Counted from the stretch's first letter, positions 4,900 to 61,416 are shown. The stretch is 64,000 nt of DNA from a virus (IMGVR_UViG_3300034200_001185:69534-133533), one strand, 5' to 3'. Numbers and translations: made by a program. The notes: generated from the letters alone by a model not told the origin.

Positions 4900-4933
4900 C
4901 ATATAGTTATCACACTTTTTAGCGAAGAATTGA
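4900..4933 (-). promoter_or_regulatory. phage promoter motif site 1 (TCAA-N16-GTGATAA-CTA-TATG)
   Basis: Near-consensus copy (TATG rather than YATA) of the recurring motif, about 32 nt upstream of ATG 4868. Confidence 0.55.
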
Positions 4934-4940
4934 GGGAAGT

Positions 4941-7900
4941 ATGATGCAAGCGCAAGGTAATTTTAATTACGGTTGGGGCAATAATCCGAATAATCCTACA
5001 ATGTCTGCGGACTTTTTAGGTGCAAATCCATACGGACCTAGCTTAGGGTATTCCGCTGGTTTAAGCGGACTTGGTGCAGCACACAATATATTTAACACGG
5101 TTAATACTGCCGGTATGTTTGCCGGTATGGCTTCAGGATTCGGCATAGGTGGATCGGGTTTAGCTAATTTCGGTAGAATAGCAGGCGGGCTTGGTTTCGG
5201 TGGCATGGTTATGCCGATGCTAGCGCCTATGGCAGTAGGTCACGCATTTGGCGCTGCTGTTCACGGCGCCCAGCAACAAAATGCCATACATAATATTATG
5301 AATCAATCGTTTGGCAACCGAAATATGGGTGGGTATGGCGGTTCTGGTTTTAGCGGACAGTCGGCTCAAATGATGACGGAAACAATTCGTAGTATGGCAG
5401 CGATACCTGACATGCTTACAAATCAAAACGAGCTTACTAACATATTTCGTAATCTTAATAGTATGAAGCTTCTACAAGCGTCTAAGAACGCTAAAGAGAT
5501 GGGCGATAAATTTAGTACGATTGTTAAAACAATGAAAGATATGGCAAGAGAACTTAATACAACGCTTGAAAACGTAATGCCTTATATCGAACAGTTTAAT
5601 AACCAAGGGTACTTTCATATGAAAGACATTCGTAGAGGATCTTCTATGACTCGTGCTACAAGCGCTGTCGGTATTGGTATGAATGAACAAAATTTAATCG
5701 GATTACAACAAAGCGGTGCAGATTTAGTTCGTGGGTATGGCGGTAGAAGTATGGTAGGATCCGAGCTTATGCGAGATATGGCTGGTCAAGTAAGCATAGG
5801 CGTTCAGAAGGGGTTAATATCAGAAGAACGTTTATTTAACGTAACAGGTAAACGCGGAGAAGAGGCAGTAGGCGAGATGTCTAAAAAGATGATGGCAGCA
5901 AACGCTCGTATTATGCAATCGGATGCAGGTAAAATATTATCCGCAGCGTTGGGAAAGAAGAATGAAAACGGAGAGTTTACAGGCGAGATTGATAAGGACC
6001 TACTCGAAAAGTTTAATAGTGGCGCACTATCATCGGAAGACATAAAATCTCTATACTCGTCTAAACTCGACAGTAGCCAAGCAGCAGTATCGTTACAAAA
6101 TAATATGTCTAGAGGTATGGGCGCAGAGTTTGGTGCGAAGATGGGCGTAGGTGGTTTAGCAAAAGCAGCGAAAGCATTACTTAAAGATTCAAACTTAAGC
6201 GATGAAGAAATTAAACTCTGGTTAAAGAATACGATACAAGAAGATCAAATCGTAGTAGATGCGATATTTGAAATGTCGGATAAATCGAAAGGGCTTGAAC
6301 GAGAATTCGAGAGGCAAGTAGGCGAGGTACAAAAGAAGAATCGAATGATGTCTGCGCTTAGAGAACGTAGTCTCGGAGCCAAGTATCAGAAGTTTAAAAC
6401 TAGCGTAGGTCATATTATATCATCTCCATTTGAAAGTATGGGCGGTGACTACATGACACAATTTTCGGAAGCTGGAGAATTAGCTAGCCACGACTTTGCA
6501 AACGGTAGATACCTTAAAGCTACGGGGCGTATGATAGGCGGTTTCTTTGGTATTCAGCCAACTCACGTACGTGGTAAGCTAGAAGGTATTAGCGATGAAG
6601 TTGTAGCAAGCGCAATGATGGGCGATACGGGAAGAACAACTACAAATAACTTTTCAGAAGCAACGGATGAAGGTGTTAATAAGTTTTTAAACACATCACG
6701 CTTTGCGCAAAACTTAGATATAATTGGTGGTATAAAAGATACATTCGATGAAACGGAAATGAGAGATTATAACGCACGTAAATTTTTCGGAACTGATAGA
6801 AAAAACATAACAGCGGATTATTTAGCAAAGAGAGAAGGTCAGAAGAGTACGACAAAATCTACTCGATTTATAAGAGATTATATTTCGAAGGCTTTGAGTA
6901 GTGGTAAGACGGTATCTGAAATCATTCGCGGACTGAAGGAGAATATGACTCACGGTGGAGGCGATATATACGGACAATTACAAGCGCTTGAATCAGAAGG
7001 TGGCGGGCTTGGTAAGTTAGCAGGAGAAGTTAGACAAGGAATTAACTCGCAAATCACCAGCGGTATGGGAAGCGCTACATCGGAGGAGAGAATAGTCGAA
7101 CTTACAAAACAAAGAAATAGTATGTTTGGTTCTAACTACGGCGTAGGTTTTGGCGGAGCGGAAGGCGAAGATATTATAGATCAAGGCGCTTTTGGTGGTG
7201 TAAACGATCTTGACAGTAATGTTCTACAAGAGATATTTAGATCCGGTAGTCAAGTGAGTATTCAAAAGCAGCAAGGATACGCACAACTTATGAATGCGCT
7301 TAGCAGCGACGATAAAATGGATATAGCGTCAGCTTTACGTAGTGGTGACGATAAAGAAATACAAAGAGTATTAGATTCGAAGGGCATAAAGCTTAGCGCT
7401 AGTGATCTTCAAGGCGCAACAAGAGATGAGTTTTTAAAGCTAGCTGGCGAGGTTTATAACTTAGACGCTGTGGGAAAGCACGGATATCAACAGTACATGA
7501 GCAAGCTTACGGGAAATCTTAGTGAACAGGCTTTACATGAAAAGGGTACGGCTAGAACGGATCTATTTAAATATACAATGGATAAAGATTTCGGTAGTAC
7601 AGAATACGGTAAGATGTTAAGTGAATACGCAAGTAAAGGCGATATATCTAAACTTGATGCGCTTACTGGATCGCTTACGGAAGATAAACTTAAAGGTATG
7701 GAAGAGTCATCCGGCAAAGACTTAATGGTTAAACTATTTGCAGAAAAGCAGCGTATAGCCGGTTTGTCGGATGATGAAGTTACGAACGAGGCTAAAGCGT
7801 ACTTGAGCGATGATCAGATTAAAGAATTAGGCATGTCTAAACTAAGAACTCGTATGACTAATAGAGTCGTACTTCAAGCCGGCAAAGCGTCTAGCGATAA

Positions 7901-8093
7901 AGATACGGATGAACTTATTATGGCTACGGCTGGTTATTCTGCTGAGGTTGCAGAAGCGATTGCGCAAGCAAACGAAACCACAGCTAGGTACATGTCTGAA
8001 ACATCAAACGCAATTACTAAGCAAGAGGCGTTTAATAAAACAACCGCAGAGGCGATAGTAAAGATAAGCAACTCGGTTAAAACCGTTCCATAG
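4941..8093 (+). CDS. tape measure-like protein
   Basis: 1050 aa, alpha-helical, with Gly-rich hydrophobic stretches; directly upstream of tube-initiator and hub genes. Confidence 0.6.
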   Translation: MMQAQGNFNYGWGNNPNNPTMSADFLGANPYGPSLGYSAGLSGLGAAHNIFNTVNTAGMFAGMASGFGIGGSGLANFGRIAGGLGFGGMVMPMLAPMAVGHAFGAAVHGAQQQNAIHNIMNQSFGNRNMGGYGGSGFSGQSAQMMTETIRSMAAIPDMLTNQNELTNIFRNLNSMKLLQASKNAKEMGDKFSTIVKTMKDMARELNTTLENVMPYIEQFNNQGYFHMKDIRRGSSMTRATSAVGIGMNEQNLIGLQQSGADLVRGYGGRSMVGSELMRDMAGQVSIGVQKGLISEERLFNVTGKRGEEAVGEMSKKMMAANARIMQSDAGKILSAALGKKNENGEFTGEIDKDLLEKFNSGALSSEDIKSLYSSKLDSSQAAVSLQNNMSRGMGAEFGAKMGVGGLAKAAKALLKDSNLSDEEIKLWLKNTIQEDQIVVDAIFEMSDKSKGLEREFERQVGEVQKKNRMMSALRERSLGAKYQKFKTSVGHIISSPFESMGGDYMTQFSEAGELASHDFANGRYLKATGRMIGGFFGIQPTHVRGKLEGISDEVVASAMMGDTGRTTTNNFSEATDEGVNKFLNTSRFAQNLDIIGGIKDTFDETEMRDYNARKFFGTDRKNITADYLAKREGQKSTTKSTRFIRDYISKALSSGKTVSEIIRGLKENMTHGGGDIYGQLQALESEGGGLGKLAGEVRQGINSQITSGMGSATSEERIVELTKQRNSMFGSNYGVGFGGAEGEDIIDQGAFGGVNDLDSNVLQEIFRSGSQVSIQKQQGYAQLMNALSSDDKMDIASALRSGDDKEIQRVLDSKGIKLSASDLQGATRDEFLKLAGEVYNLDAVGKHGYQQYMSKLTGNLSEQALHEKGTARTDLFKYTMDKDFGSTEYGKMLSEYASKGDISKLDALTGSLTEDKLKGMEESSGKDLMVKLFAEKQRIAGLSDDEVTNEAKAYLSDDQIKELGMSKLRTRMTNRVVLQAGKASSDKDTDELIMATAGYSAEVAEAIAQANETTARYMSETSNAITKQEAFNKTTAEAIVKISNSVKTVP

Positions 8094-8101
8094 GATTAGA
8101 T

Positions 8102-8281
8102 ATGAGCGATAAAAAAGAATCTGAAAAGACGAAGCAAGAAGTACAGTATAAACTAGACAGAATGGTTGCGTCTAAAGATGCGTTATTACTTAAAACGGAT
8201 ATACTAACTACAAAGACTCAAGAGTTTAATAACGGAAGCCTTTTAGTACTTACAAAATTACAAACATCGTTAGGAAGATGA
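8102..8281 (+). CDS. small hypothetical protein (59 aa, below ORF-track cutoff)
   Basis: MSDKKESEKTKQEVQYKLDRM...TSLGR*, translated by hand; AGGA upstream; fills the gap. Confidence 0.6.
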   Translation: MSDKKESEKTKQEVQYKLDRMVASKDALLLKTDILTTKTQEFNNGSLLVLTKLQTSLGR

Positions 8282-8282
8282 T

Positions 8283-8492
8283 ATGATCTCGTTACCAATA
8301 AATTACGGAGCTCAGCGTGTTCCACTGAGCAACAAATCGCAAGTAGATTTAATTATCGTAGATAAGATATCAAGCGATGTCATAATAGACGTATTAGCTA
8401 AATCTATTGCGTATAAAAAAGTATACGGCGAAGATATGCCGAATCAAATAACCGACAAAATGCGAATGCAGTGTACAAAGGTTACGATATGA
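8283..8492 (+). CDS. hypothetical protein
   Basis: 69 aa in operon. Confidence 0.6.
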   Translation: MISLPINYGAQRVPLSNKSQVDLIIVDKISSDVIIDVLAKSIAYKKVYGEDMPNQITDKMRMQCTKVTI

Positions 8493-9802
8493 TAAACTTT
8501 ATAACACCTTCGGTACTTTCACCAAAAAACATAAGAACGCTAGCGATAGATTCTTCTAAATTATCATCGGATGTAAGTAATGGATTTGTACGTAGACCTA
8601 TAAACGGTATATCTATTAAACCAGATACATACGCATGTATTTTGTATAACGGCGCTATAAACACCAGCTCGCCTATTAAAAAGGATAAGTACGATCACAA
8701 CTTACTTGTACAACAATTTAGTTTAAGCCGTACTGAGAAGAGTCAAGTAATCGAAACATTTGATGGGCATTACGTTTATTTCTTTGGCGAGAGAGCACCA
8801 AATGCATCCGTAAGTGCGTTACTACTCGATACCGAAACATTCGAATGGTTTCAGCAATTCGATATGAACTACGAAAAGGTTTACCGAGGTACTCAAAACG
8901 CAACACGTAAAGCGCCAATCTCGATTGTTATTGATGGCTTACAACTCGTTGGATATATTACTAACGTAAGTTACTCTCAAAGTGCTACGCAAGATCCATA
9001 CATGGTAAACATGAACTTTAATATGATCGTAGAAAAAATAGTACACTTGTCGGATATAACTGCGGTCAAGGTAAATAAAGTAGATTCGGATAAAGAATCC
9101 GTGCTGAGAAAACTATCTAGCCAAAATCAGCTATCAAACGTTTTATCAAATAAATTTAAAAGCGTAGCAGATGAGATAGCATTCCTAGCAAACGCAGGAC
9201 AGTTAAAGAGTAGCGACCCTGTTCAGACCAAGTTACAAGAAATCGTCAATGATTATAGAAATAAAAATCCCGCACCTACATCTTACTTCGAAGCGTATCC
9301 AAACGAGTACTTGTCAGGCAAGTTTGGAAATTTAACAAACGCATCTGACTTTGATGTAATTATAGAATACGCAGATAATATTACCGCAGCGAAGGATTTA
9401 GATTTCCTATCAAAAATTGTAAGCACGAATAGAGTAGCGGAGCTTACCGAAGAGTATAAGATGCAAGCCAACTTGGTAAACCAACAATCAGAAAACGTTG
9501 GTTTGTATATTGACTCCGTAATACAAGATCAAACCGCAGTAGACATTATAGGAGATTTATTTGGTAGCGGTGTAACTGCTGACTCATTACTACGATCAAA
9601 ACAATCTGCAAGCATGGCAGCGTCTCTTTCGTTATACGGCCTACAAACACTTACATCAAACTTAAGCGAAGCAGTCGACTTCCTTGACAATACGCTTACT
9701 AGTGTTAGAGTATACGCGCTTGGAACCGTTGAAGGGATATTTGGACCGGATCGCGAAGTACAAGAGGATCAGATAAATACAAATCTCGGAGAGTTTATAT
9801 GA
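8471..9802 (+). CDS. putative baseplate tube-initiator/distal-tail-fold protein (start may be 8489)
   Basis: Tube-like beta pattern (LVQQFSLSRTEKSQVIETFDGHYVYFFGER...LVGYITNVSYSQSA...NMNFNMIV); lies between tape measure and hub. Confidence 0.45.
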   Translation: MYKGYDMINFITPSVLSPKNIRTLAIDSSKLSSDVSNGFVRRPINGISIKPDTYACILYNGAINTSSPIKKDKYDHNLLVQQFSLSRTEKSQVIETFDGHYVYFFGERAPNASVSALLLDTETFEWFQQFDMNYEKVYRGTQNATRKAPISIVIDGLQLVGYITNVSYSQSATQDPYMVNMNFNMIVEKIVHLSDITAVKVNKVDSDKESVLRKLSSQNQLSNVLSNKFKSVADEIAFLANAGQLKSSDPVQTKLQEIVNDYRNKNPAPTSYFEAYPNEYLSGKFGNLTNASDFDVIIEYADNITAAKDLDFLSKIVSTNRVAELTEEYKMQANLVNQQSENVGLYIDSVIQDQTAVDIIGDLFGSGVTADSLLRSKQSASMAASLSLYGLQTLTSNLSEAVDFLDNTLTSVRVYALGTVEGIFGPDREVQEDQINTNLGEFI

Positions 9803-12189
9803 GTACGTCCTTTTTAAGAATACGATGTTTTTTAGAAGGATACGAGATACCGATCATAAGCGCATCAGTGACTGCGTCTATGAACGACATTGCAAGAGCA
9901 TCCGTAGAATTAATTGCTACGCCACAAGCATTACTCATTCGTCCTAAGACATCTATTCTTATATTCTTTCTAGAAGAAGCGGTAAGACCGCCAAATAGCT
10001 CTACGTCTGAAGTCAATAATAAGTATTATAAGTTATTCTTTTCTGGCGAGGTGCACGGTATATCGATTAATAAATCAGCCGAAGGAAGAGTGCTTACGCT
10101 AACGTGCACAGACCATTTCGAGAATTTATCGAGAGCATATACTTACTACACCGAACAGCAAGCTAGCGTATCCAATCTGATTAATACCAAAGCGTACTTT
10201 GCAGCTGCCATGATTATCCAAAATAGTATTAATCAAGCAAACTTTACGCTACTAGAAGAAGTATTCAAAGATCCGAAACCTAAGTCGATTGGGTTTACAG
10301 ACGCAAAAGGAATACTTGCTGCTATGATACGCATGATTGAATTGTACACCGGTATTATAGAACAGGGTACGACAGGTGCTAATGCGTTTTTCACACACCA
10401 ACAAAACCGACTTAAAATACTCGAACAGATTACAATAGCGTCAGAAGATTTAGCGCCTCTCAAGATATTTAAAGCAGACGTATTAGCCAACTTTGTAGGA
10501 AATACATACGGAAGACTTGGCGGACTTGTTAAAGTAATCGACGTCATTCAGATGATACTTTCGATCATAGGATACGTTAGATGTCCGAATCCATTAGCAA
10601 CTACTTTAACAGGAGGTGTTGAGAAAGAGATAAGCTTAACTCAAAAAGCAATAGATGCTAGAACATCATTTGCAGATGGTTACAGGAATAATCAAACGGT
10701 TAACGAATCTTTAAGCTCGTATTTTGGAACACCTGAAATTGCTCGAAAGATATCAAACGCAATTGATTCAGCAGACGCATTACGTATTCTGAAGGAAAAT
10801 AACGTAATAAATTCTAAAGCGTACAACTATCTATCTACTACCGTAAAAGAAAGCGATCAGTTAGAATTTCAAGTATCAATAGACGACGTTAGATCGGTTG
10901 CGACTGAGCTTTTAAATGCAAACGAATCTGATCCAAATAGGCTACCGACAGACGACTCTGGTATAAACGCAGTGTTTTCAACAATGAGTAATGTTTCTTC
11001 TACTGCAACACGTATTACATCAAGTAAATTAAATAGTACGTTAATGATGCCAGACTTCTTATACGCAGATCCGCCTAAGTGTAATATACTATTTCCTTGT
11101 ATGTACAACATGCTTAGCTTTAATCGACAAGCAGCTGACGAAACATCAAGACTACAAATGGTTACGAATCTACAAGAGTTAGCACCGAATGCTGCAGGCG
11201 TGGACGAGCTTACTTACTTTTCTCCGTCCTTTCCATTTTTAAACGGATTACAAGGTAAAAAGCTATCGGAGAATTTATCGGTAGATGAACTTGTGAATCA
11301 ACAATCGGATAACGGTAAATCGAGAGTAGGTTTAATCATGGACCACGAAATGTTTACAGGTGTTGTGCCTGAGTTTGCAAGCATGTCAAGACTCGCTATG
11401 CTAATCGATAATGGTAAAAATTACTCAGGGGAAACAACCGAAGAGGGACTTAATGGTAAGGATGATTACTTTACTCGTTACGCGGACGCTATGTTTATAC
11501 AACGTAGATTATCGCAACGTAGTATAAGTGCGTCCGGCCCATTTAATCCGTATCCAGTAGTTGGGTTTCCAATGTTAGTAATCGATCAAACAAGTCAAGG
11601 AGCAGAAACTGAGCAGTTTATAGGCGTATTACAATCGATTACTCATAGCATATCCCAATCCGGTGGATCTACATCTTACTCAGTGATATACGCAAGACCT
11701 GTTAGCCTTGCAGACGATGAGTTTTTTAAGTACATGGATAAAGATCTTCGTGAAGCTTTAAAACCGAAATGGTTAGAATCTATATACGATGTAGACAAGG
11801 TAGGAGATGTTTATTGGGAATTAATTGGTAGCGAATCTATGTTTGTTAGAGGTAAGGATCAAAACGCAGTTATTGCAGATTTACAAAAAGAGTATGATGC
11901 GTTAAGATCAGAACAACAACGTAACTCGTTTTATCTAAGAATGTGCCGAAGAGAGATATGCTCTATGCAGTTTGCAAAAGACGTATTTTTCCAAAAGCCT
12001 TTAAAAGAAGTCGATAGATTATCTACGATAACACAGGTATGCGTTGGCGGTGCGTCACAAAACTTAGCAAATCATACTGAAACTGTTTCGTACCCTAAAA
12101 ACGAATTTGAAGAAAAAGTAGACAACCAGAGAGTAAAAGCCGTAATAGATTACGCAAACTCGCTACAGACAAGGAGCTTAGTAAAATGA
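9799..12189 (+). CDS. baseplate hub protein (gp27/gpD/VgrG-like fold)
   Basis: N-term FLEGYEIPIISASVT...LFFSGEVHGISINKS...LTLTCTD; C-term GPFNPYPVVGFPMLV...FIGVLQSITHSIS...TSYSVIYAR. Confidence 0.65.
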   Translation: MSTSFLRIRCFLEGYEIPIISASVTASMNDIARASVELIATPQALLIRPKTSILIFFLEEAVRPPNSSTSEVNNKYYKLFFSGEVHGISINKSAEGRVLTLTCTDHFENLSRAYTYYTEQQASVSNLINTKAYFAAAMIIQNSINQANFTLLEEVFKDPKPKSIGFTDAKGILAAMIRMIELYTGIIEQGTTGANAFFTHQQNRLKILEQITIASEDLAPLKIFKADVLANFVGNTYGRLGGLVKVIDVIQMILSIIGYVRCPNPLATTLTGGVEKEISLTQKAIDARTSFADGYRNNQTVNESLSSYFGTPEIARKISNAIDSADALRILKENNVINSKAYNYLSTTVKESDQLEFQVSIDDVRSVATELLNANESDPNRLPTDDSGINAVFSTMSNVSSTATRITSSKLNSTLMMPDFLYADPPKCNILFPCMYNMLSFNRQAADETSRLQMVTNLQELAPNAAGVDELTYFSPSFPFLNGLQGKKLSENLSVDELVNQQSDNGKSRVGLIMDHEMFTGVVPEFASMSRLAMLIDNGKNYSGETTEEGLNGKDDYFTRYADAMFIQRRLSQRSISASGPFNPYPVVGFPMLVIDQTSQGAETEQFIGVLQSITHSISQSGGSTSYSVIYARPVSLADDEFFKYMDKDLREALKPKWLESIYDVDKVGDVYWELIGSESMFVRGKDQNAVIADLQKEYDALRSEQQRNSFYLRMCRREICSMQFAKDVFFQKPLKEVDRLSTITQVCVGGASQNLANHTETVSYPKNEFEEKVDNQRVKAVIDYANSLQTRSLVK

Positions 12190-12581: not shown

Positions 12582-12583
12582 CA

Positions 12584-13411
12584 ATGAATGAGTTAGAGAA
12601 GTTTCTACTTTCGGGAGTAGAGAAAAAAGCAAGCATGGATACGTTTGTATTAAATTCTCTAACTCCTATGGTAGAAGGCGTTGAGCCTGTAGTATCAGAC
12701 GCTGAGAAAAAGAACGAGCATGAACTCTGGAAGAAATGGAAAGAATCGAATTACAATCCGATGTACCTCCGTCCCTTACAAGACTCATTTAAAAATCTAA
12801 TATTCTTTCACGTAAATAAGTGGAAATCCGTAAATATACCTACTCGCTTAATACAAGCGGAGGCTGAAAAGCAATTTATAGACGGACTTAAAACTTATAA
12901 TCCAAATAAAGGTGCCGCGCTTGCTACACACTTGAACACCGTTTTAAGTAGAATGGCGAGATTTATTATTGCGCACCAGAATATGGGTCGCGTGGTAGAA
13001 GGTCGTGCGGGCAAAGCGTTTAGTAATCTTAAGACGGCTAAGAATTTATTCATAGAAGAATTCGGTAGAGAGCCAAATGCGCAAGAGCTTGCTCAAAAGG
13101 TTTCGTTTGAATACAAGCTTGCATGTACGCCAAACGATGCTAAGGCTTTCCTAAAAGAAGATCGAAGAGACTTGTCAATTGGAGACGAAGAAGCTGATTT
13201 TACATTCGAGGCTCCAGCTAATCGTATGCTACTTATGATGTTGCCTGCGGAACTTACGCTAGAAGAAAATCAAGTATTCGAAAGATTATTTGGTATTAAC
13301 GGATGTAAGAAACTTGAGAAGGGACAGATTGCGAAGCAATTACGTATACACCCGTCTAAAGTTAGTAGAATTATCGCAAGTATTCGTGAAAAGTTGGAGA
13401 AGTATCAATGA
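12584..13411 (+). CDS. RNA polymerase sigma factor, sigma70 family (FliA/WhiG/SigF-like size, regions 2-3-4)
   Basis: Region 2 (GLKTYNPNKGAALATHLNTVLSRMARFI), region 3 (FIEEFGREPNAQELAQKV), region 4 HTH (LTLEENQVFERLFG...GQIAKQLRIHPSKVSRIIASIREKL). Confidence 0.85.
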   Translation: MNELEKFLLSGVEKKASMDTFVLNSLTPMVEGVEPVVSDAEKKNEHELWKKWKESNYNPMYLRPLQDSFKNLIFFHVNKWKSVNIPTRLIQAEAEKQFIDGLKTYNPNKGAALATHLNTVLSRMARFIIAHQNMGRVVEGRAGKAFSNLKTAKNLFIEEFGREPNAQELAQKVSFEYKLACTPNDAKAFLKEDRRDLSIGDEEADFTFEAPANRMLLMMLPAELTLEENQVFERLFGINGCKKLEKGQIAKQLRIHPSKVSRIIASIREKLEKYQ

Positions 13412-18532: not shown

Positions 18533-18534
18533 TT

Positions 18535-43269: not shown

Positions 43270-43303
43270 TATACTGTTATCACTTTATGCGATACTCTTT
43301 TGC
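43270..43303 (-). promoter_or_regulatory. phage promoter motif site 2 (GCAA-N16-GTGATAA-CAG-TATA)
   Basis: Full consensus match 57 nt upstream of ATG 43213. Confidence 0.65.
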
Positions 43304-45299: not shown

Positions 45300-45300
45300 G

Positions 45301-45670: not shown

Positions 45671-47703
45671 TATTTCGCCTCCGCCCAATTCGGTGCGAAC
45701 CCGCCTTCCGCTGTTAGCGGAACTAATAGGTCCAATCCCGGATTTTCCATTTTCTTCATTACAAGCTGATTGATCTTGCATAGTATCTCCTCGTTGTTAG
45801 GCGCTTCTACGATTAATTCGTCGTGTACTTGGAGAAGCATTCTAACCCCAAGTTCCCCGCCTTCTAAACAATCTCCGCCTAGAAGTGGATCACGATCTAT
45901 CGCAAGCATGGCCATCTTTGTTATATCTGCCGCGCTACCTTGAATAGGCGCATTAATTGAGTCACGTTCTGCCTTAGCACGAATACCTTGATTACTAGAC
46001 GTGATTTGAGTCAAGCGTCTGTACCTACCGGTAAGCGTTCTTACGCAGTGCTGCGGATCCGCAACTAAATCGTATTGTACCTTGTCAATATACTTACGTA
46101 CGTTTGGAAATGTATTAAACCACTCGCTAATCTTTTTCTTCGCTTCCGAGATTGTGATACCGAGAGTTTCCGATAAGGCTTTAGGGCCTTGACCGTACAT
46201 AATACCAAAACCAATCGCTTTTGACGCATCACGTGCATCGAGTAAGCTTTGCATACGTTTTCTATCTACATTAAGATCTTCGACAATAGCTAGCGCATGT
46301 TCTTTGTCAATGTTGACTTTCTTTGCGAGTTTCGTAGCTGCGCCTTCTATTTCTCCGACATCGGATAATATCTTTGCGCCCATAGCCTCTTCGTAGCTAA
46401 CACCTTGCATCTTTGATGCCGTAAAACAGTGCAAATCAAGTCCGTCAGATATTGCACCGCACATATGCTTATCACGACTCATGTGAGCCATAACACGCAT
46501 TTCAATTTGACCGTAGTCCCATACGCCAAGCGCATAACCTTCGCTACACATAAACGCCTTACGAATTTCCTTACCCGCATCCCCCTTACGAGGTATGTTT
46601 TGTAGGTTAGGATTTTGCGATGATAGTCGTCCTGTAACAGTACCTGTCTGTTGGAGCGTACAATGTATTCTGCTATCTTCGCCAATATGCTCTTGTAAAC
46701 CTTCGAGATAAGTACCAACGAGTTTATCTAGCTTACGATACTCTGCGAGAAGTACGGCAGCTTCAATACCACGCTTTGCAAGTATTTCTAGTGTTTCAAT
46801 GTCGGTAGAAGGCTTAGAGCTATCAGTGTATGCCACGGGCTCAAGTCCCATACCGCCTTCACTTTGAGGGCCGAAGAAGAAGTGTTGTAACTGCTTTACG
46901 GATCGAATATTGATTGGATACCCTGCGATTTGCTTAATCTTTCGATCTAGCTCTCGCATACGTACTTCCATAGGACCTTTCATATCAAGTAGATGCTGTG
47001 TATTGATACAAAATCCCCTACGTTCCATTCGCCACAAACATTTAGTAAACGGCATTTCAATCTTCGTAAAGTACCCAAACAGATTCTCAGTTACTCCGTA
47101 TTCGGACGTATCTAGCTTTTTCATCTCTTCCGCATGCACCTCGCTTAAGTGCCAAGTGGCATAAGCGTCAAGTGTAGCGTAGCGAGCAACTAGATCGAGA
47201 GGGGCATTGATTAGACGATGAATAACTTCGCTTTCACTACGTACATTAAATACTTCGCTAAATGGTTTCATCGGTATTCCTAGAAAGTCACGTGCTTGAG
47301 ATTTTAAGTCAAGCTCACCACGAATTTTTCTATTCTCGTCAATCATAAACCCCATAACTAGCGTATCCGCTACTCTACCGCGCATTTCAGGTACTGCGAC
47401 GTTAGCTAACATATGCATATCGTATTTAGCGTTATGCATTACCCACACTCGATCCGAATCCGTATACAAGTTGTGGAAGGATGGCGACATAATCAACTCT
47501 AAAGAAAACAACCAGCGTTCTTGTCCATCAGACATTGACCAGAATAACGGAATGTCATTACTGATCGATAAGCCGGTTGTTTCCGTATCAAGTGCGAGTC
47601 GTGTCCGCCAACCACATTCCCTAGACGCAAGTTCGTTCATTAGCTGATCGAACTCACACGGATCCGTGACTATAATGGGAGGGGGAAGGGAAACGAATTG
47701 CAT
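45670..47703 (-). CDS. polA: family A DNA polymerase (3'-5' exonuclease plus polymerase, no 5'-3' exonuclease)
   Basis: ExoI LDTETTGL, ExoII HNAKYD, ExoIII YATLD; motif A DYGQIEMR, motif B RDASKAIGFGIMYG, motif C QVHDEL. Confidence 0.97.
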   Translation of the reverse strand: MQFVSLPPPIIVTDPCEFDQLMNELASRECGWRTRLALDTETTGLSISNDIPLFWSMSDGQERWLFSLELIMSPSFHNLYTDSDRVWVMHNAKYDMHMLANVAVPEMRGRVADTLVMGFMIDENRKIRGELDLKSQARDFLGIPMKPFSEVFNVRSESEVIHRLINAPLDLVARYATLDAYATWHLSEVHAEEMKKLDTSEYGVTENLFGYFTKIEMPFTKCLWRMERRGFCINTQHLLDMKGPMEVRMRELDRKIKQIAGYPINIRSVKQLQHFFFGPQSEGGMGLEPVAYTDSSKPSTDIETLEILAKRGIEAAVLLAEYRKLDKLVGTYLEGLQEHIGEDSRIHCTLQQTGTVTGRLSSQNPNLQNIPRKGDAGKEIRKAFMCSEGYALGVWDYGQIEMRVMAHMSRDKHMCGAISDGLDLHCFTASKMQGVSYEEAMGAKILSDVGEIEGAATKLAKKVNIDKEHALAIVEDLNVDRKRMQSLLDARDASKAIGFGIMYGQGPKALSETLGITISEAKKKISEWFNTFPNVRKYIDKVQYDLVADPQHCVRTLTGRYRRLTQITSSNQGIRAKAERDSINAPIQGSAADITKMAMLAIDRDPLLGGDCLEGGELGVRMLLQVHDELIVEAPNNEEILCKINQLVMKKMENPGLDLLVPLTAEGGFAPNWAEAK

Positions 47704-47707
47704 TTAG

Positions 47708-48769: not shown

Positions 48770-49682
48770 GGTGATCTCGCTTTCTTCTCCACTGTAGTAG
48801 TGGTAATGCTGACTTTAGTGAGCTTTCTAGCTCGTCTTTCGTAAGTTCGTCAGGTTGACGTGTTGAATAATCAACTAGCCACGTATCCGTGCCATGTTTA
48901 CTTAGTATTATCGCAATATTCTCTTGACCTTTTCGACCCGCCTCATCGTTGTCTAACATGAGATATACAGGACGTCCGTCCGATACAATCATGTCTCTCT
49001 GAGCGTCCGAGATCATTTTTCCGAGGAGTGCTACCGTACCAAGTTCACCTAGCTCGACTAGTTTTAAACACGCCTTAAACCCCTCAACGACAATTAATCT
49101 TTCAACCGACTTAGGGACGCGGTGGTAACGCCATAAGTAGTCGTGAGAACGAGGATTGTATCCCGCTGGGCAATAGTCCATAAGCTCTCGCTTATAAACA
49201 CGGTATCTTGGACCAGTTGAGTTACCAATCGATCTACCATATACCGCAACGAGTTCTCCGTTCTCATTTCGAATAGGTATTGTGACACACTGATTAAAGG
49301 TGTCAAATCCTATTTCGTGGTCTTGTAACACGTCTGGATCAAGTCCACCTTCGATCCATGGTGTAGGCTCATAATCCCACGCATACAAAACACTCTCATC
49401 AAGTATTTGTTCTTGTTGCTTAGGTGTTTTTGTATACATGTCACGCTTTGACTCTGCAATCAAGGCAACGATCTCTTGGGGAGCGCGTTTCCATTTAAGA
49501 GCAGTTTCAAGCGTACCTTTAGCGCCACATGAAAAACAAATAAATACCTTCTTATCAAGGTTAAGATGACATGAAGGCGATTTATCTTGATGATCAGGCG
49601 ATGGGCATTTAATGAATACGTTATTATTTGTACTCGGCTTTACTTCACCGAAATACTCCGCTATCAGTTCTCTGATGTCCAC
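48753..49682 (-). CDS. dnaG: DNA primase (CHC2 zinc finger plus TOPRIM)
   Basis: CPSPDHQDKSPSCHLN...FICFSCG; LIVVEG...LMLDNDEAGRKG. Confidence 0.93.
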   Translation of the reverse strand: MDIRELIAEYFGEVKPSTNNNVFIKCPSPDHQDKSPSCHLNLDKKVFICFSCGAKGTLETALKWKRAPQEIVALIAESKRDMYTKTPKQQEQILDESVLYAWDYEPTPWIEGGLDPDVLQDHEIGFDTFNQCVTIPIRNENGELVAVYGRSIGNSTGPRYRVYKRELMDYCPAGYNPRSHDYLWRYHRVPKSVERLIVVEGFKACLKLVELGELGTVALLGKMISDAQRDMIVSDGRPVYLMLDNDEAGRKGQENIAIILSKHGTDTWLVDYSTRQPDELTKDELESSLKSALPLLQWRRKRDHHESMV

Positions 49683-51629: not shown

Positions 51630-51661
51630 AAAAATCTCCACTATCGGGCGTATTCGCCTTT

Positions 51662-51695
51662 CATGATGTTATCCCAAGTTACTCTGCGTAATTTC
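51662..51695 (-). promoter_or_regulatory. degenerate phage promoter motif site (GAAA-N16-GGGATAA-CAT-CATG)
   Basis: In the only sizeable gap of the replication operon, 33 nt upstream of ATG 51629; two mismatches in the core. Confidence 0.4.
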
Positions 51696-53123: not shown

Positions 53124-53128
53124 ATTTC

Positions 53129-54819: not shown

Positions 54820-55243
54820 CGGACATTACCTTATGTCGATAGTTTTCTCTTGACGCTACGATGAGCGAATGTATACGCTCTGTAGTCACTTGTGCTATAT
54901 CATGAACAAGATACGTTGTAAACTGTCCAAATATAGGTTTGTTGAAATTAAAGTCAACGTCTGCTGCGCGTATGACACCTCCACGCTGTGCTGCCACTGG
55001 TACTGCAGCGGTTGTTGCAGGTCTTACGGGTACTCCTGTTGATACGTAGTTACTAGCCGGCGTTGTTGGCGATGCTGCTCTTGGTCTTGTATAATAGCTC
55101 ACGTTATTTCTCGCTTTCTCGTCTATGGCTTTACTGCATTCGTGTCTAAATCCGCATCCGGAACACGCAGAACTACTTTCATTAAACTCAGAGTCATTCG
55201 CAAAGCAATCTGGCTTGTCGGATGATTTAGTGTAATAGCTCAT
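54809..55243 (-). CDS. hypothetical protein with N-terminal Cys4 motif
   Basis: PDCF...CSGCGFRHEC; AAGGAGG RBS; first gene of the replication block. Confidence 0.8.
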   Translation of the reverse strand: MSYYTKSSDKPDCFANDSEFNESSSACSGCGFRHECSKAIDEKARNNVSYYTRPRAASPTTPASNYVSTGVPVRPATTAAVPVAAQRGGVIRAADVDFNFNKPIFGQFTTYLVHDIAQVTTERIHSLIVASRENYRHKVMSDEE

Positions 55244-55270
55244 TTATTGGCTACCTCCTTTGTTTGTCTG

Positions 55271-55306
55271 TATGCTATTATCACAGATAATTGACTATTA
55301 AATTGA
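55271..55306 (-). promoter_or_regulatory. phage promoter motif site 3 (TCAA-N18-GTGATAA-TAG-CATA)
   Basis: 28 nt upstream of ATG 55243, at the head of the replication operon. Confidence 0.6.
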
Positions 55307-55323
55307 TCCTACTTATTGTATAA
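55291..55323 (+). promoter_or_regulatory. candidate plus-strand promoter: TTGACT-N17-TATTGT, with TATTGTATAA box
   Basis: Sigma70-like spacing upstream of ATG 55348; TATTGTAYAA also occurs at 29780-29789. Confidence 0.4.
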
Positions 55324-55347
55324 GTTACGTATTACAAGGAGCTTATT

Positions 55348-56208: not shown

Positions 56209-57008
56209 TGCTTAGAAAAGACTTTTTTAGCAACGAAACTACTCATGCGTATTGCTTAGGTATTGCATGCGACAATCTATTCGGTATAAATTGGCTCGAA
56301 TGGGAGCCTAAAACCGTTTACCAAGGAATTGCCGAACTCGGCTATCAACCGGTATCCGAAACGAATGCACAAAAATTACATGCGTATAGAACTGGTGTTG
56401 CTACGGTATTACCTTGGACTGATTGGCTATCCTTCGAAAGCACAATCAACGGTTTAAATGGCGTAATTGTAAACTTTACTAAGAGTACACCTTGTAAGAT
56501 TTCGCACCTAATGGCTGGCATGGATATTCTTCGATTACTTCAGCAACAAAAGTTTGGAGACGAGGTAAAGAAGTATATTGCGTCTTGTGGTAAGAATGCG
56601 GAGTTAAACTTCTTACCAGATCCGCTTACCTTTTGTATGCAGTACCTTTGTAGGCCTATGTATAAGTGTAATGACTGCGGAAACACTGACGTAGACGATC
56701 TATCGGACGGTAGATGTGATTTCTGTGTTGGTAGGTACGAACAAGGTGTACTAATCGATGCGCCACAAAAAGGTTTAGAAAATCGAGGTACAAACATTAC
56801 TAAGTTTATGGAATACGATTATTTTGAGCTTGCAAATAAATTCGATGCTTACAAACAATTATCGGAAGATAAGATTTTACTTGGCATATCTCCGTTAGAA
56901 ATACAAATAGCAAAGTTGCTTCAGTATAACTATTATAGAAAAGAGATGCGCTTTCAAATGAACGAACAGCTACAGGAGATCAAACATGCGGGTTTCAAGA
57001 ATGTATAA
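56208..57008 (+). CDS. hypothetical protein with a Zn ribbon
   Basis: 266 aa; CNDC...CDFC; TAATG coupling. Confidence 0.75.
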   Translation: MLRKDFFSNETTHAYCLGIACDNLFGINWLEWEPKTVYQGIAELGYQPVSETNAQKLHAYRTGVATVLPWTDWLSFESTINGLNGVIVNFTKSTPCKISHLMAGMDILRLLQQQKFGDEVKKYIASCGKNAELNFLPDPLTFCMQYLCRPMYKCNDCGNTDVDDLSDGRCDFCVGRYEQGVLIDAPQKGLENRGTNITKFMEYDYFELANKFDAYKQLSEDKILLGISPLEIQIAKLLQYNYYRKEMRFQMNEQLQEIKHAGFKNV

Positions 57009-57690
57009 AACCGCTGAGAGTTTAGACGCTATCGGCAAAGCAATTCAAACGGGTACTCAAGAAGAAGTTCAAAACGCAATCAAGGCTTACCAAAAGAATA
57101 CCGGAAAACCTATAAGCGGTGCAGATCTCGCTAAGCTGACACCAAATAATACAAACGTAGATAAGCTAACTTTCGGACAGAATGTAAAAGCGCTTGGCAG
57201 TCAAGCTAAATGGTCGCATGCTAATCCTATGACGTGGATGAAAGAAGGTTGGAAGGAAATGGGTGCGCAAGGTGGCGAAGGCCTTGCCGGCGGTGCTGGT
57301 ACTAAGATGAGACATATTCCGCTTGGTGCCAGACTTGGTACCGCTGCTATGTTAATTCCATCACTCGCACAAGCACCTCAAGCCGAAGATCCAACCGGTC
57401 AAGGTAGAAGTCGTACTGAACGCGTTGGCGTTGTTGCGGGCGGTTTAGCTGGTAGCTTAGCTGGTACTATTCCTATGGCAGTAACAAAGCGTTTGACAGG
57501 TGTGGGCGGTATGGCTATACCAATGCTCGCAGGTTATGGCGGTATGGTTGCCGGTGAATACTTAGGCGGTAAAGCGGGTAAACTAGTCGATGCCGGAGTA
57601 TCTAAGTCAAGAGGGGTAGCGTCAGGAGATGCGACAAATCAACGCTACATGGATTCAAAACGACAAAAACCAACAGCAGGAGCGTTCTAA
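57001..57690 (+). CDS. Gly/Ala-rich hydrophobic protein, probable virion internal/ejection protein
   Basis: MYKTAES... (ORF-track start 56986); C-terminal GxxxG-rich hydrophobic segments. Confidence 0.6.
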   Translation: MYKTAESLDAIGKAIQTGTQEEVQNAIKAYQKNTGKPISGADLAKLTPNNTNVDKLTFGQNVKALGSQAKWSHANPMTWMKEGWKEMGAQGGEGLAGGAGTKMRHIPLGARLGTAAMLIPSLAQAPQAEDPTGQGRSRTERVGVVAGGLAGSLAGTIPMAVTKRLTGVGGMAIPMLAGYGGMVAGEYLGGKAGKLVDAGVSKSRGVASGDATNQRYMDSKRQKPTAGAF

Positions 57691-57693
57691 TAA

Positions 57694-59757
57694 ATGAGTA
57701 GACCACCAGGCTATGGAGGTAGGGGTACGATTATGCACGCCGCTGCGGGAGCAGAAGGTCGTGCAACAACCGCACCTAAATACCCACACCCATTCTTTGA
57801 TCAGGGGCAAGCGTACCTACCTACATCGTACAAGAACATGTTTCATTGGTGTAGGTACTACTTCTTAACAAACCCAGCTGTAAACTCGTCTGTTTCTAAA
57901 ATGGCCGAGTACCCAATTACTCCGATTGTATTTAAAACGGAGAATCAAGCATTACGTACTAAATACGAAGAGATTACAAAGATATTAAACCTTAAATCAT
58001 TTCGTATTGAAGTCGGACTAGATTATTATACTTATGGAAATTGCTACGTAAGTATTATATTCCCATTTCGTAAATTCTTAATATGCCGTAATTGTAAACA
58101 TCATCACGATATTAAAGACGTGAAGACTACTAAGTACCGTTGGGTATCTATGCAGTACCAACTCGAATGCGCTAAATGCGGACATCACGGATTCTGTGAC
58201 GTAAAGGATCAAAGCATTAAATCGCTAAAAGGTATACGTTTAGTTAGATGGGATCCCGAAAGAGTTGACGTAAAGTACGATGATTTTACAGGCATAAGTG
58301 AATATTTCTACGATATTCCGCAAGAGACATCCAATGAAATACGTATGGGCAAACGAAGATACTTAGAAGATATGCCCGATGTATTTGTAAAGTCGGTACA
58401 AAGGGCAAGACGCTTAGTACTAAGTCAAGACAACTTGTACCACTTTCGTAGACCAACACTCGCTCAAAAGAGTATGGGCTACGGAACACCGCTTGTTCTT
58501 CCCGTTCTTAAAGATTTACATTACCTCGGTATTCTACGTAGATCACAAGAATCAATTGCGCAAGAACATATTGTGCCAATGCGTATTATCTTTCCTAGTT
58601 CTAACAGTCCTAACGCTGATCCTTATTCTATGCTTAATTTGATGGAATGGAAGAACGAGGTGGAGAAACAAATATCGCAATGGAAGATCGATCCTAATCG
58701 TATTCCAATCATGCCATTACCTCTCGGCGTACAACAAATCGGCGGTGAGGGTAGAGCGCTTATTCTTCACCAAGAGTATCGCGTTTGGATGGAACATATT
58801 ATTGCGGGTATGGGCGTACCACCAGAGTTTGTATTTGGGGGCGTTCAGTACAGCGGTACAAATCTTACTATGTTCCAACTTCATAATAAGTTCTTATCGT
58901 ATATCGACGATCAGAGAGAGCTTGTATTCGATTTCATTCTAAATAGAGTTGCGTCTTATATGAATTACCCAACCATTGACGGTGACTTTAGACCGTTTAA
59001 GATGGCGGATGATTTACAACGTACCATGCTCTACTTCCAACTCGTACAAGGTCAAAAGCTTGCAGATCGTACTTTACTTGAAGATCTCGGATTTGATCCG
59101 GCTCTTGAACGTAGAAAGATGGACGAAGAGCGTGGCGAGATGCTTGAATTACAACGAAGAATGCAGATACAACAAGCGCATATTCAAGGCGATGTTATGG
59201 CTGTTAACGCTAAGTACCAAGCAGAATCACAACGTTCTCAAGTACAAGGTCAATTCGAAGTTCAAAAGCTACAAGCGCAATTACAAGAACAAATGCAGCA
59301 AGAGCAGACAGCGAAAGAGCAAGCTAAACAAGCGCCACAGATTACCGGGTCACTTGCGTCCAACGGTGCATTACCAGACGGCGCAATGACAGGTGATCAA
59401 GTAGCGCCTGGTTTCCCACAAGGAGCGACAGCGTACTCTAGAAACGGAAGTTCTACACCTCAAACCGGTATTCCACCTTGGTTTGGCGTAGAGAGAACTG
59501 GGGCTAATAAAAACGGTGCACAGATGGATATCTCGTATGTCGCAAAGAGAGCAGCCGCATATATACGCGGTTTACCTTCAGATAGACAAAACGAAGTATT
59601 AAATACTATGTCCGTTTCAAATCCACAGTTGCATCAAATGGTTTTAAACATGCTTGATTCGAGATCTGGTGCTCAGACCAATCCTGTAAATCCGGCACAA
59701 ATGCCTATGCCTCAGATGCGTCCGCCAAGACGAGATGCTCGCTTGATCAGCCAATAG
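57694..59757 (+). CDS. portal protein with a Zn-ribbon insertion and a long Q/P-rich C-terminus
   Basis: CRYYFLTNPAVNSSVSKMAEYPIT; LYHFRRP...GYGTPLVLPVLKDLHYLGILRRSQESIAQEHIVP; portal-like architecture. Confidence 0.75.
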   Translation: MSRPPGYGGRGTIMHAAAGAEGRATTAPKYPHPFFDQGQAYLPTSYKNMFHWCRYYFLTNPAVNSSVSKMAEYPITPIVFKTENQALRTKYEEITKILNLKSFRIEVGLDYYTYGNCYVSIIFPFRKFLICRNCKHHHDIKDVKTTKYRWVSMQYQLECAKCGHHGFCDVKDQSIKSLKGIRLVRWDPERVDVKYDDFTGISEYFYDIPQETSNEIRMGKRRYLEDMPDVFVKSVQRARRLVLSQDNLYHFRRPTLAQKSMGYGTPLVLPVLKDLHYLGILRRSQESIAQEHIVPMRIIFPSSNSPNADPYSMLNLMEWKNEVEKQISQWKIDPNRIPIMPLPLGVQQIGGEGRALILHQEYRVWMEHIIAGMGVPPEFVFGGVQYSGTNLTMFQLHNKFLSYIDDQRELVFDFILNRVASYMNYPTIDGDFRPFKMADDLQRTMLYFQLVQGQKLADRTLLEDLGFDPALERRKMDEERGEMLELQRRMQIQQAHIQGDVMAVNAKYQAESQRSQVQGQFEVQKLQAQLQEQMQQEQTAKEQAKQAPQITGSLASNGALPDGAMTGDQVAPGFPQGATAYSRNGSSTPQTGIPPWFGVERTGANKNGAQMDISYVAKRAAAYIRGLPSDRQNEVLNTMSVSNPQLHQMVLNMLDSRSGAQTNPVNPAQMPMPQMRPPRRDARLISQ

Positions 59758-60193
59758 CGCTTGATTGTTTAATTATAAAGTCCAAGCATAATTCGTATTC
59801 ATTCCTAAATTCCGTATCAGCACCGAAATCCTCATACGCACAGTCAGGGCAGAAATACAAATCAGGTATTAGCGATGTGTTTTCAACCTCTTCGAAGTGA
59901 AGTGCCTTTTTGTCATACACAAATTCTCCCCTTGTCGTACGAACAATCAAGTCCTTTCCATCGTCTAGGAAATCAAGTCCACACCTACCGCATTTATTAG
60001 GCTCCTTTTGGAAGCGATACTTTAGGTTGTGTATCACCGGAGTGATACAAGCGCTATGCATATAGAAGGACGAGCTGAGTATATCAAATACTAAGTGGCC
60101 ACCGCGTGCATGCCTAATTGTACGTCCAATTTGAATGCGATATACTGGCTTACCTTCGTCGAATCCGTCGTTACAGCAAATACATGTTGTCAT
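59747..60193 (-). CDS. double zinc-finger (LIM/treble-clef-like) protein, paralog A
   Basis: CICC...HSAC...CGRC...CPDC; GGAG RBS. Confidence 0.75.
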   Translation of the reverse strand: MTTCICCNDGFDEGKPVYRIQIGRTIRHARGGHLVFDILSSSFYMHSACITPVIHNLKYRFQKEPNKCGRCGLDFLDDGKDLIVRTTRGEFVYDKKALHFEEVENTSLIPDLYFCPDCAYEDFGADTEFRNEYELCLDFIIKQSSAIG

Positions 60194-60205
60194 GATTAAA
60201 TCTCC

Positions 60206-60234
60206 AAGCGTAAGTATCCTTACGCTTATTTTTT
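60206..60234 (+). terminator. intrinsic terminator-like hairpin
   Basis: AAGCGTAAG-TATC-CTTACGCTT, a 9-bp perfect stem followed by ATTTTTT on the + strand; could stop read-through from the portal operon. Confidence 0.55.
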
Positions 60235-60711
60235 GTTAGATATTTCTTCGTCTATTTTCATTACCCAAGTGTCGATTATATCTGACTCAACGAAACCGTC
60301 ATTAGCACAGATTGGACACAAGTAGTAATCATACTTTGTAGTGTCTTCGGTAAATCTTATGTCAAGTTCTTCAGCGTTTCCTTCAACATCACCGCTTATT
60401 AACCGAAGGCAATAAGGTATCGAGCTGTTTGGCGCAATAGATTCGAGGCAAATCGAGCACCGAAGAGGCTCTTTTTGTATTTCGATCTTTCTGTTCTTAA
60501 GCAATAGCTCGAAACAGAAATCGTGTATGTACATATTACCTTCCGTGCAGTCGAATATGGCGTGTCCGCCGGGCTTGTGGATGATAGTTTTTCCGAGTTC
60601 AACGGAGTAAACATCTTCTCCGGCTTCTATTCCATCCATACAGGATTCGCAGTATGTTGCAAATACTACTAATTCTTCGTCTTCTGAATCGTTTGGCTTT
60701 TTAGGACTCAT
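60226..60711 (-). CDS. double zinc-finger (LIM/treble-clef-like) protein, paralog B
   Basis: CESC...HDFC...CSIC...CPIC; start MSPKK with GAAAGGA RBS. Confidence 0.75.
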   Translation of the reverse strand: MSPKKPNDSEDEELVVFATYCESCMDGIEAGEDVYSVELGKTIIHKPGGHAIFDCTEGNMYIHDFCFELLLKNRKIEIQKEPLRCSICLESIAPNSSIPYCLRLISGDVEGNAEELDIRFTEDTTKYDYYLCPICANDGFVESDIIDTWVMKIDEEISNKK

Positions 60712-60997
60712 GTTGTTTCCTTTCAACGAGTGCTCTTGCTACTGATTGTCTTTTACACGCATCACAATTACCGCTTGAATGAAACGGCAGTATCTCATAC
60801 TCATCTCGATTATGATCAACACATGCAATACATAACCATTTCGCGTCATCTACGTATTCGTATAAGTGCTTGCAATCGCTACATTTAATTACGCTACAAA
60901 ACTTTTGTGGGTGTACACTACAATACTCGTTTGGCTTTTGCTCACCTGTGTTAACTTCTGTGTTTACGTTGAAGTGCTTTGCGTCTGTCCGCTTCAT
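60701..60997 (-). CDS. Cys-rich hypothetical protein
   Basis: 98 aa; CSDC, CIAC, CDAC. Confidence 0.65.
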   Translation of the reverse strand: MKRTDAKHFNVNTEVNTGEQKPNEYCSVHPQKFCSVIKCSDCKHLYEYVDDAKWLCIACVDHNRDEYEILPFHSSGNCDACKRQSVARALVERKQHES

Positions 60998-61106
60998 TGC
61001 TTTGAATCTCCGCTTTCTTAGCTTCGCTATTTAATTCCCAAGTCAGCCAACCTACGAATCCGAGTATTGCTGACCATAAGAATAGTTTTTTTTGACGACT
61101 GTCCAT
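60951..61106 (-). CDS. small single-pass membrane protein (51 aa, not in ORF track)
   Basis: MDSRQKKLFLWSAILGFVGWLTWELNSEAKK...RKHRS*, translated by hand; GAAAGGA RBS; motif promoter upstream. Confidence 0.65.
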   Translation of the reverse strand: MDSRQKKLFLWSAILGFVGWLTWELNSEAKKAEIQSNEADRRKALQRKHRS

Positions 61107-61128
61107 GTTAAATCCTTTCGTCTGTCGC

Positions 61129-61161
61129 TATGTATTTATCACACTTTATTTTTAAAATTGC
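61129..61161 (-). promoter_or_regulatory. phage promoter motif site 4 (GCAA-N15-GTGATAA-ATA-CATA)
   Basis: 23 nt upstream of ATG 61106. Confidence 0.65.
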
Positions 61162-61182
61162 GCACCCCATAGAATTTAAGCT

Positions 61183-61271
61183 AAAAAAACCTTACGGAGA
61201 AGGATGGAAGAAATTCGGCTATTGGGGTTTTAGAACCACCGGTCGCCGAATTTCTTCCATCCTTCCCCATA
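61183..61271 (-). terminator. long inverted repeat followed by a U7 tract (terminator-like) on the minus strand
   Basis: Perfect 21-bp arms 61199-61219 / 61245-61265, extending with two mismatches to 61193/61271; A7 at 61183-61189. Confidence 0.6.
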
Positions 61272-61307
61272 GTCGTAGTCGGGGTCGTTTGTGTATATAT
61301 ACCGCAT
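61230..61307 (-). CDS. 25-aa aromatic-rich peptide (MRYIYTNDPDYDYGEGWKKFGDRWF)
   Basis: Perfect AGGAGG (61315-61320) 7 nt upstream of ATG; lies in the unit between promoter site 5 and the hairpin. Confidence 0.5.
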   Translation of the reverse strand: MRYIYTNDPDYDYGEGWKKFGDRWF

Positions 61308-61382
61308 GGCATATCCTCCTACACATCAAGTAACCTTACCGAAGAGAAAAGTAAGGTTGGTTTGAGTTAGTTGTTTCTCTTC

Positions 61383-61416
61383 TATATTCTTATCACGCAA
61401 TTTGTGGTAGACTTGC
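61383..61416 (-). promoter_or_regulatory. phage promoter motif site 5 (GCAA-N16-GTGATAA-GAA-TATA)
   Basis: Full consensus; back-to-back with the RNAP beta start. Confidence 0.65.

Follow-up and report, generated by a model that had tools for sequence, protein, structure and literature searches.

A bipartite promoter-like element in a 133-kb phage and its candidate reader, a phage-encoded sigma70-family factor

Introduction

Here we describe a bipartite, promoter-like element, built of a G(C/A)AAWW block and a GTGATAA core, in a viral DNA stretch of 64,000 nucleotides (nt) (IMGVR_UViG_3300034200_001185:69534-133533), and weigh its possible reading by a sigma factor encoded by the same phage. 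The stretch, referred to as the window, makes up the final 64 kb of a phage genome of 133,533 bp; coordinates are those of the window, except where they are given as genome coordinates, which refer to the full 133.5 kb. Among the described promoters closest to it is the extended -10 promoter of the sigma70/sigmaS type, TTGACA-N17-TGnTATAAT, where sigma70 needs a T both at -7 and at the first hexamer position. Like this promoter, the element is bipartite, carries (T)G two to three bases ahead of an ATAA-containing hexamer and has a spacer equivalent of 18 bp; its likely start is a purine 5-7 nt past the hexamer, and the nearest solved relatives of its candidate reader are SigA and RpoS. Unlike it, the element has G(C/A)AAW in place of TTGACA, G as the first base of the hexamer and G or C, never T, as the last. 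With the sigma28 (FliA) promoter it shares a GATAA core at an identical distance from an A-rich upstream tetramer, whereas TGA stands for CGA and GCAA for TAAA, the phage sigma fails the FliA/WhiG model and sister clades carry TATAAG.

As in the case of SPO1 gp28 and gp33/34 and of T4 gp55, a phage-encoded sigma would here define a phage-specific promoter class. To our knowledge, SPO1 and T4 encode no RNA polymerase core, their sigmas use the host core, and their promoter consensus sequences differ from the motif described here; in this phage, in contrast, the sigma co-occurs with a phage core enzyme. Phage core enzymes are known from AR9, whose virion multisubunit RNA polymerase reads the early promoter AAATATATATTAT-N6-G+1 (PMC5312081); in the virion polymerases of AR9/phiKZ-like phages, beta and beta' are split, and a sigma homolog is lacking (PMC13282480). 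The element studied here likewise has a conserved AT-rich block, with a start predicted about 6 nt downstream, and precedes small, putatively early genes, and the enzyme is encoded among virion genes and was found in virions of the relative Arash. Contrary to the AR9/phiKZ-like promoters, which have no -35 block, the promoter here is bipartite and is accompanied by a fused beta::beta' chain and a true sigma70-family protein. A 2026 review distinguishes phage multisubunit RNA polymerases without sigma homologs from sigma-encoding jumbo phages without a polymerase of their own (PMC13282480); the lineage described here has both, contrary to that split. Our literature search found no relevant report of GTGATAA as a phage promoter and no published promoter consensus for this lineage.

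Results

Enrichment and Orientation of the Motif

The core GTGATAANNNYATR occurs six times in the window, compared to 0.18 ± 0.46 times in shuffled sequences, and none of 100 shuffles reached six. Bare GTGATAA is not enriched in the window by number (10 copies, 12 expected), and in the whole genome it has 28 minus-strand and 4 plus-strand copies. Of these 28, 15 are intergenic, although intergenic DNA makes up 6% of the genome, and GTGATAA is the top-ranked intergenic 7-mer (16-fold), ahead of Shine-Dalgarno words. The strict core GTGATAA-N3-YATR is found 16 times genome-wide, always on the minus strand, besides a degenerate GGGATAA copy. A weight matrix trained on one site per independent group gave 21 minus-strand and two plus-strand sites at a score of at least 14 across the genome, where 0.2 per strand were expected, and it recovered sites that were not in the training set, including the degenerate one at 51662-51695. 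The intergenic sites number 20 and reduce to 16 independent groups, since five of them form one repeat family. For comparison, the replication block shows no excess of matches to the sigma70-type consensus (35, with 45.8 expected).

A first-pass annotation of the window had proposed a bipartite phage promoter, exclusively on the minus strand, that marks non-structural genes. The enrichment it called for is borne out by the 16-fold intergenic excess, by shuffles that never reach the window count and by the strong minus-strand bias. Exclusivity holds for all strict cores and for 21 of the weight-matrix sites; the two exceptions stand upstream of plus-strand genes, by 35 nt at genome 15678 and by 56 nt at genome 37790. 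As both precede genes of their own strand, the element tracks gene orientation and not genome strand. In summary, the proposed bipartite promoter-like element is real, with about 23 copies in this phage; its second block stands at a fixed distance, and its orientation follows the genes.

Anatomy of the Element

Alignment of the sites placed an upstream block, G(C/A)AAWW, 14 nt before GTGATAA. CAA lies exactly 16 nt before the heptamer at 11 of the 20 intergenic sites and at none of eight coding sites, with a background of 2% per position, and CAA-N16-GTGATAA has 12 copies in the genome, compared to none for the control pattern. Two blocks, a fixed spacer of about 16-18 bp with unconserved sequence and an orientation directed by the genes are the hallmarks of a bipartite promoter of the sigma70 family, and the element shows all of them. 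The downstream TATR part is less rigid, with a spacing from GTGATAA that ranges from N1 to N3 in this genome.

Since the Shine-Dalgarno sequence (GGAGG) starts 7 nt past GTGATAA in the relatives L002 and L016, transcription would have to start within about 7 nt of the heptamer, which points to a -10-type element. The same distance led us to reject GTGATAA as a -35 element. We also rejected, as the main function, a plus-strand -10 element formed by the reverse complement (TATATT/TATAGT): the fixed upstream block exists in the minus orientation only, and 12 of the 20 intergenic sites are flanked by minus-strand genes on both sides.

The geometry agrees, as the first-pass annotation had noted, with that of the sigma28 promoter TAAA-N15-GCCGATAA, as 18 nt separate the tetramer from GATAA in both. 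However, at an identical distance the upstream block here is G(C/A)AA, with the AA pair alone common to it and the TAAA of sigma28, and the base preceding GATAA is T at 16 of 17 sites and C at none, so that the CGA core of sigma28 was not found.

Conservation in Close Relatives

No GenBank phage matched 20 kb of this genome by megablast, and a viral-contig scan with the sigma protein as the query found no relative. Metagenomic relatives of the sigma-like protein do exist. Four relative contigs, whose sigma proteins are 73, 45, 47 and 44% identical, preserve the arrangement of genes around sigma, in which a small divergent gene stands beside a protein of about 1050 amino acids. Across these four relatives, CAA and GTGATAA are the sole invariant upstream columns of the gap that precedes the small gene, and the 16-nt spacer between them is not conserved. 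About 20 kb of each of the contigs L001 and L002 were covered. In a further 20-kb fragment (PolA 64% and RNA polymerase 57% identical), GTGATAA occurs six times forward and twice in reverse, and five of the forward copies precede genes.

Sister Motifs in Distant Phages

The nearest named relatives of the RNA polymerase are those of Salmonella phage Arash and Vibrio phage D69 (about 29-30% identity), both of which encode a sigma homolog. De novo k-mer enrichment in Arash (L005) yielded TGGTATAAG, followed by TAA-NN-TGTAA, with about 31 minus-strand copies against one plus-strand copy of TGGTATAAG, upstream of minus-strand genes. In D69, the motif is GTTATAAG-(T/A)AATAT-R, with 18 minus-strand copies, one plus-strand copy and TCAA 16-17 nt upstream. 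A third genome, G002 (175 kb, IMG/VR), has a strong sigma match and a fused polymerase of 2115 amino acids, and uses G(A/C)AAT-N14-TG(T/G)TATAAG. Some motif sites of Arash and G002 directly precede apparent tRNA sequences. At -7, where host sigma70 needs T, G is fixed across the Salmonella phage, the Vibrio phage and (as G/C) the phage studied here, and a sigma and a phage core enzyme co-occur in all four genomes where both were searched. Three PolA-related phages (G003-G005) have neither sigma nor RNA polymerase, and GTGATAA is not enriched in them.

Within the first 100 kb of Arash, GGTATAAG occurs once on the plus strand (11588-11596), directly ahead of gp9-gp10, the sigma gene. By its position, the Arash sigma may fall under its own promoter class.

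From the aligned motifs, a family consensus can be proposed: G(M)AAW, about 14 nt, (T)G-K-K-ATAAG, about 5-6 nt and a purine, where the last hexamer base is G (G/C in the phage studied here) and never T. Since the sister motifs read TGnTATAAG, the element is better described as an extended -10 promoter of the sigma70 type, with G/C replacing T at -7, than as a sigma28-like one.

A Sigma70-Family Factor and a Fused RNA Polymerase

The plus-strand gene at 12584..13411 encodes a protein of 275 amino acids with sigma domains 2, 3 and 4, found with PHROG_351 (2e-10), by profile and by fold. Pfam alone gave nothing for it at E < 0.001. An exhaustive search collected 836 representatives of its family; a 60-member family profile matched chains of SigA, RpoS and SigB at 1e-22 to 1e-16 over regions 2-4, compared to 3.5e-8 for FliA, and SigA in the PDB at 7e-22 over positions 46-246. 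The AlphaFold2 model (predicted local distance difference test, pLDDT, 86.9) has an N-terminal extension of about 38 amino acids followed by three helical domains, and all of its top Foldseek matches are sigma factors, over 240-300 columns, with SigA and RpoS foremost. Sigma2, sigma3 and sigma4 are thus supported by both profile and fold, as in a sigma70-family protein. The FliA/WhiG model (TIGR02479, NCBIfam) did not match the window sigma at E <= 0.01, and its relatives matched the FliA, SigBFG and RpoD models about equally, none near the curated cut-off. The profile, NCBIfam and Foldseek results hence leave the earlier label "FliA-like" unsupported and support "sigma70-family"; as judged from profile and model, 12584-13411 is a genuine three-domain protein of that family.

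The sigma gene is single-copy, and no other sigma homolog was found in the genome. G002 has a weak second sigma-profile match (C1:75382-75633, 2.7e-5, region 4 only) in an ORF (open reading frame) of 229 amino acids, which may encode a second sigma-like or helix-turn-helix protein. The N-terminal extension of the window sigma (12584-12700) consists of a short helix and then a disordered stretch; it is absent in L002, L016, Arash and D69 and longer in L017 and G002. Where region 2.4 has its TYATWW part, the aligned sigma segment reads THL/THV and lacks a tryptophan pair; a comparison of this region 2.4-like segment across clades found no residue that could be tied to the choice of G or T as the first hexamer base.

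The RNA polymerase gene begins at 61438..64000 on the plus strand, where its N-terminal part matches Pfam RNA_pol_Rpb2_6 (1e-33), and runs off the window. The ORF continues across the assembly junction to genome 3875 and forms a single beta::beta' fusion of 2097 amino acids. The assembly is circular, as judged from an overlap of about 126-146 nt between the genome ends, in which the first 20 nt are discordant. G001 and G002 encode homologs of 57% and 39% identity, with open frames of at least 1729 and of 2115 amino acids.

Individual Sites, Leaders and Other Elements

The coordinates, minus-strand placement and spacers of six window sites listed previously (N16, N16, N18, N15, N16 and N16, with the degenerate site last) were all verified. 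Between motif and start codon, the window sites leave 22-56 nt, and each start has a Shine-Dalgarno sequence. At 4900..4933 (minus strand), TCAATT-N14-GTGATAACTATATG has a weight-matrix score of 29.8, and a gene of 154 amino acids starts 31 nt further on (ATG 4868); the gap orthologous to this one keeps only CAA and GTGATAA in the four relatives, upstream of the ribosome-binding site. At 43270..43303 (minus strand), GCAAAA-N14-GTGATAACAGTATA scores 25.8, 56 nt before the ATG (43213) of a 277-amino-acid gene, and the degenerate GAAATT-N14-GGGATAACATCATG at 51662..51695 (minus strand), which was not used for training, scores 15.7, 32 nt before ATG 51629 of a 107-amino-acid ORF. Two sites have other spacers: TCAA at N18 with GTGATAATAGCATA at 55271..55306 (minus strand, score 19.9), in a divergent gap 27 nt before the ATG (55243) of a 144-amino-acid gene, and GCAA at N15 with GTGATAAATACATA at 61129..61161 (minus strand, score 19.2), after a hairpin and T-run and 22 nt before the ATG (61106) of a 51-amino-acid ORF. 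The highest of these scores, 30.8, belongs to GCAAGT-N14-GTGATAAGAATATA at 61383..61416 (minus strand), which stands back to back with the RNA polymerase gene and precedes a structured leader of about 200 nt with a small ORF.

The earlier list of cores had missed a full match, GTGATAAGCATATG, at 46462..46475 on the minus strand, inside the PolA gene (codons MAHMSRDKHM). It lacks a -35 block, and its weight-matrix score is below 9, so that it probably arose by coincidence in the coding sequence and is no promoter. A sub-threshold, promoter-like GAAAAG-N14-GCGATAAT (score 13.6) was seen at 48901-48934 on the minus strand, within the 3' end of an ORF and 145 nt ahead of the next minus-strand gene start (48769).

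Five promoter copies (genome 47740, 48567, 53043, 53519 and 57741) have the upstream block GATGATAGTAAAACGT in common. Several of them (genome 47.7-57.8 kb), and also window 61332-61382, share a downstream leader that starts with GAAGAAAAGGAAC...GCACGCC and has the look of a repeated 5' leader or small-RNA family; Rfam had no match anywhere in the window, including the leader copy there. The copy at genome 53043 points into an ORF-free stretch of about 550 nt (genome 52604-53155), a candidate non-coding transcript.

Two other elements were seen in intergenic DNA. Near-consensus TTGACA-N16-17-TATAAT is about 3.6-fold enriched there, mostly before plus-strand genes (for example, genome 14267, 56746 and 67074; window 14951 and 29805), and is a possible second promoter class of the host type. 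The word CGGATACG, part of a CG-(G/A)ATA-CG hairpin, shows a 13-fold intergenic enrichment genome-wide and may be a terminator or processing hairpin.

Discussion

We consider it probable that the phage sigma, together with the phage beta::beta' core, reads the motif as a promoter, and that this enzyme is virion-delivered, which would place the motif in the early class. As the sites align, the promoter would comprise a -35-like G(C/A)AAWW, 14 nt, an extended -10-type (T/C)GTGATAA(G/C), about 5 nt that usually read WATAT, and a purine as the likely +1, and it would drive small-gene and replication operons, mostly on the minus strand. Its most likely reader is the sigma70-family protein of 12584-13411, acting with the fused beta::beta' RNA polymerase. 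If Arash is a guide, both proteins probably travel in the virion and are injected, which would make the motif the early promoter class. We infer this from the mass spectrometry of Arash virions, the position of the motif before small and replication genes, the G/C at -7, its persistence across hosts and the co-occurrence of sigma and polymerase. In Arash virions, beta was the most abundant protein by spectra, beta' was present and sigma was detected at 100% coverage (PMC10585845); the authors noted that these proteins might serve early transcription or be a carry-over of abundant proteins (PMC10585845). The tie between the motif and the phage's sigma and polymerase, made in the first-pass annotation with a "FliA-like" sigma, is supported by four close and three distant relatives and by the three PolA relatives that lack both proteins and show no enrichment; it was the "FliA-like" part that did not stand.

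Several points weigh against this reading. Virion packaging is known for Arash alone, whose sigma is 26% identical (Arash proteins, 26-30%), and there it may reflect carry-over. The 1050-amino-acid and 477-amino-acid flanking ORFs show no detectable similarity to Arash proteins, and the gene order around them resembles that of Arash by sizes only. Start sites and sigma binding are predictions throughout this phage group, and some of the likeness between sites stems from the five-member repeat family. Moreover, the sigma gene lies in a co-directional plus-strand block with a baseplate-wedge homolog and a tail-fibre-like gene, so the protein could conceivably also be a late sigma, comparable to SPO1 gp34 or T4 gp55. 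Finally, since TGnTATAAG differs little from the universal extended -10 consensus, a host sigma70 may make some use of it.

The last two points meet in the main rival explanation, where the host RNA polymerase with its housekeeping sigma reads the motif as an extended -10 promoter, possibly with a phage co-factor, and the phage sigma serves other promoters, for example late ones. TGnTATAAG agrees with TGnTATAAT at eight of nine positions, the distance between the two blocks is within the sigma70 range, and late sigma genes are often found among baseplate and tail genes, as this one is. However, sigma70 requires T at -7 and as the first base of the hexamer, where the motif has a fixed G (G/C at -7 here), and its -35 block, G(C/A)AAW, has little in common with TTGACA. 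These deviations recur among phages that infect different hosts, the motif family is seen in genomes with a phage sigma and RNA polymerase while GTGATAA is unenriched in PolA relatives without them, and we found no alternative conserved motif for the phage sigma upstream of plus-strand genes. We hence regard use by the host sigma70 as unlikely, although it is the strongest competitor to reading by the phage holoenzyme.

Still less probable is an operator role, in which a phage DNA-binding regulator of the RHH or XRE type would recognise the core instead of a polymerase. A highly conserved 7-8-mer in regulatory gaps would suit such a site, as would the additional upstream block GATGATAGTAAAACGT of the repeat-family copies, but the site lacks symmetry and has neither a dyad nor a direct-repeat partner, its orientation is strict and its distance to the ribosome-binding site narrow. 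In addition, the second block stands at a constant distance, about two helical turns away, and in relatives the site also precedes apparent tRNA sequences.

That the phage borrows a host sigma28 (FliA) promoter is very unlikely: the motif shares GATAA and the 18-nt spacing from the tetramer with TAAA-N15-GCCGATAA, while the core reads TGA in place of CGA, the tetramer GCAA or GAAA in place of TAAA, and the TATAAG of the sister clades is not sigma28-like; replication genes that depend on a flagellar sigma would, moreover, be odd. A chance pattern or functionless dispersed repeat, to which the unremarkable count of the bare heptamer in the window and the five-copy repeat family could be credited, is the least credible of all and already contradicted by sixteen independent groups, shuffles that never reach the observed counts, the extreme strand and intergenic bias, and a motif that is kept at an orthologous site while its surroundings diverge.

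The results provide a concrete and testable promoter consensus for this lineage in four clades, which is needed for in vitro transcription, start mapping and holoenzyme structures. The motif also allows the annotation of transcription units and candidate non-coding RNAs in the genomes of this lineage, which are otherwise almost unannotated. More tentatively, and as a serious possibility rather than the expected outcome, the motif family may be the early promoter of a complete virion-delivered holoenzyme, with a fused or two-chain beta/beta' and a true sigma70-family factor, in a system common to a large uncharacterised lineage of 130-190-kb phages with unrelated hosts; the -10 pocket of the sigma would have changed its preference at -7 from T to G/C. 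A simple means by which phage and host promoters could be kept apart is suggested by this fixed G/C: if the wider proposal is true, the injected enzyme would ignore host promoters, and the host enzyme would ignore the early promoters of the phage.

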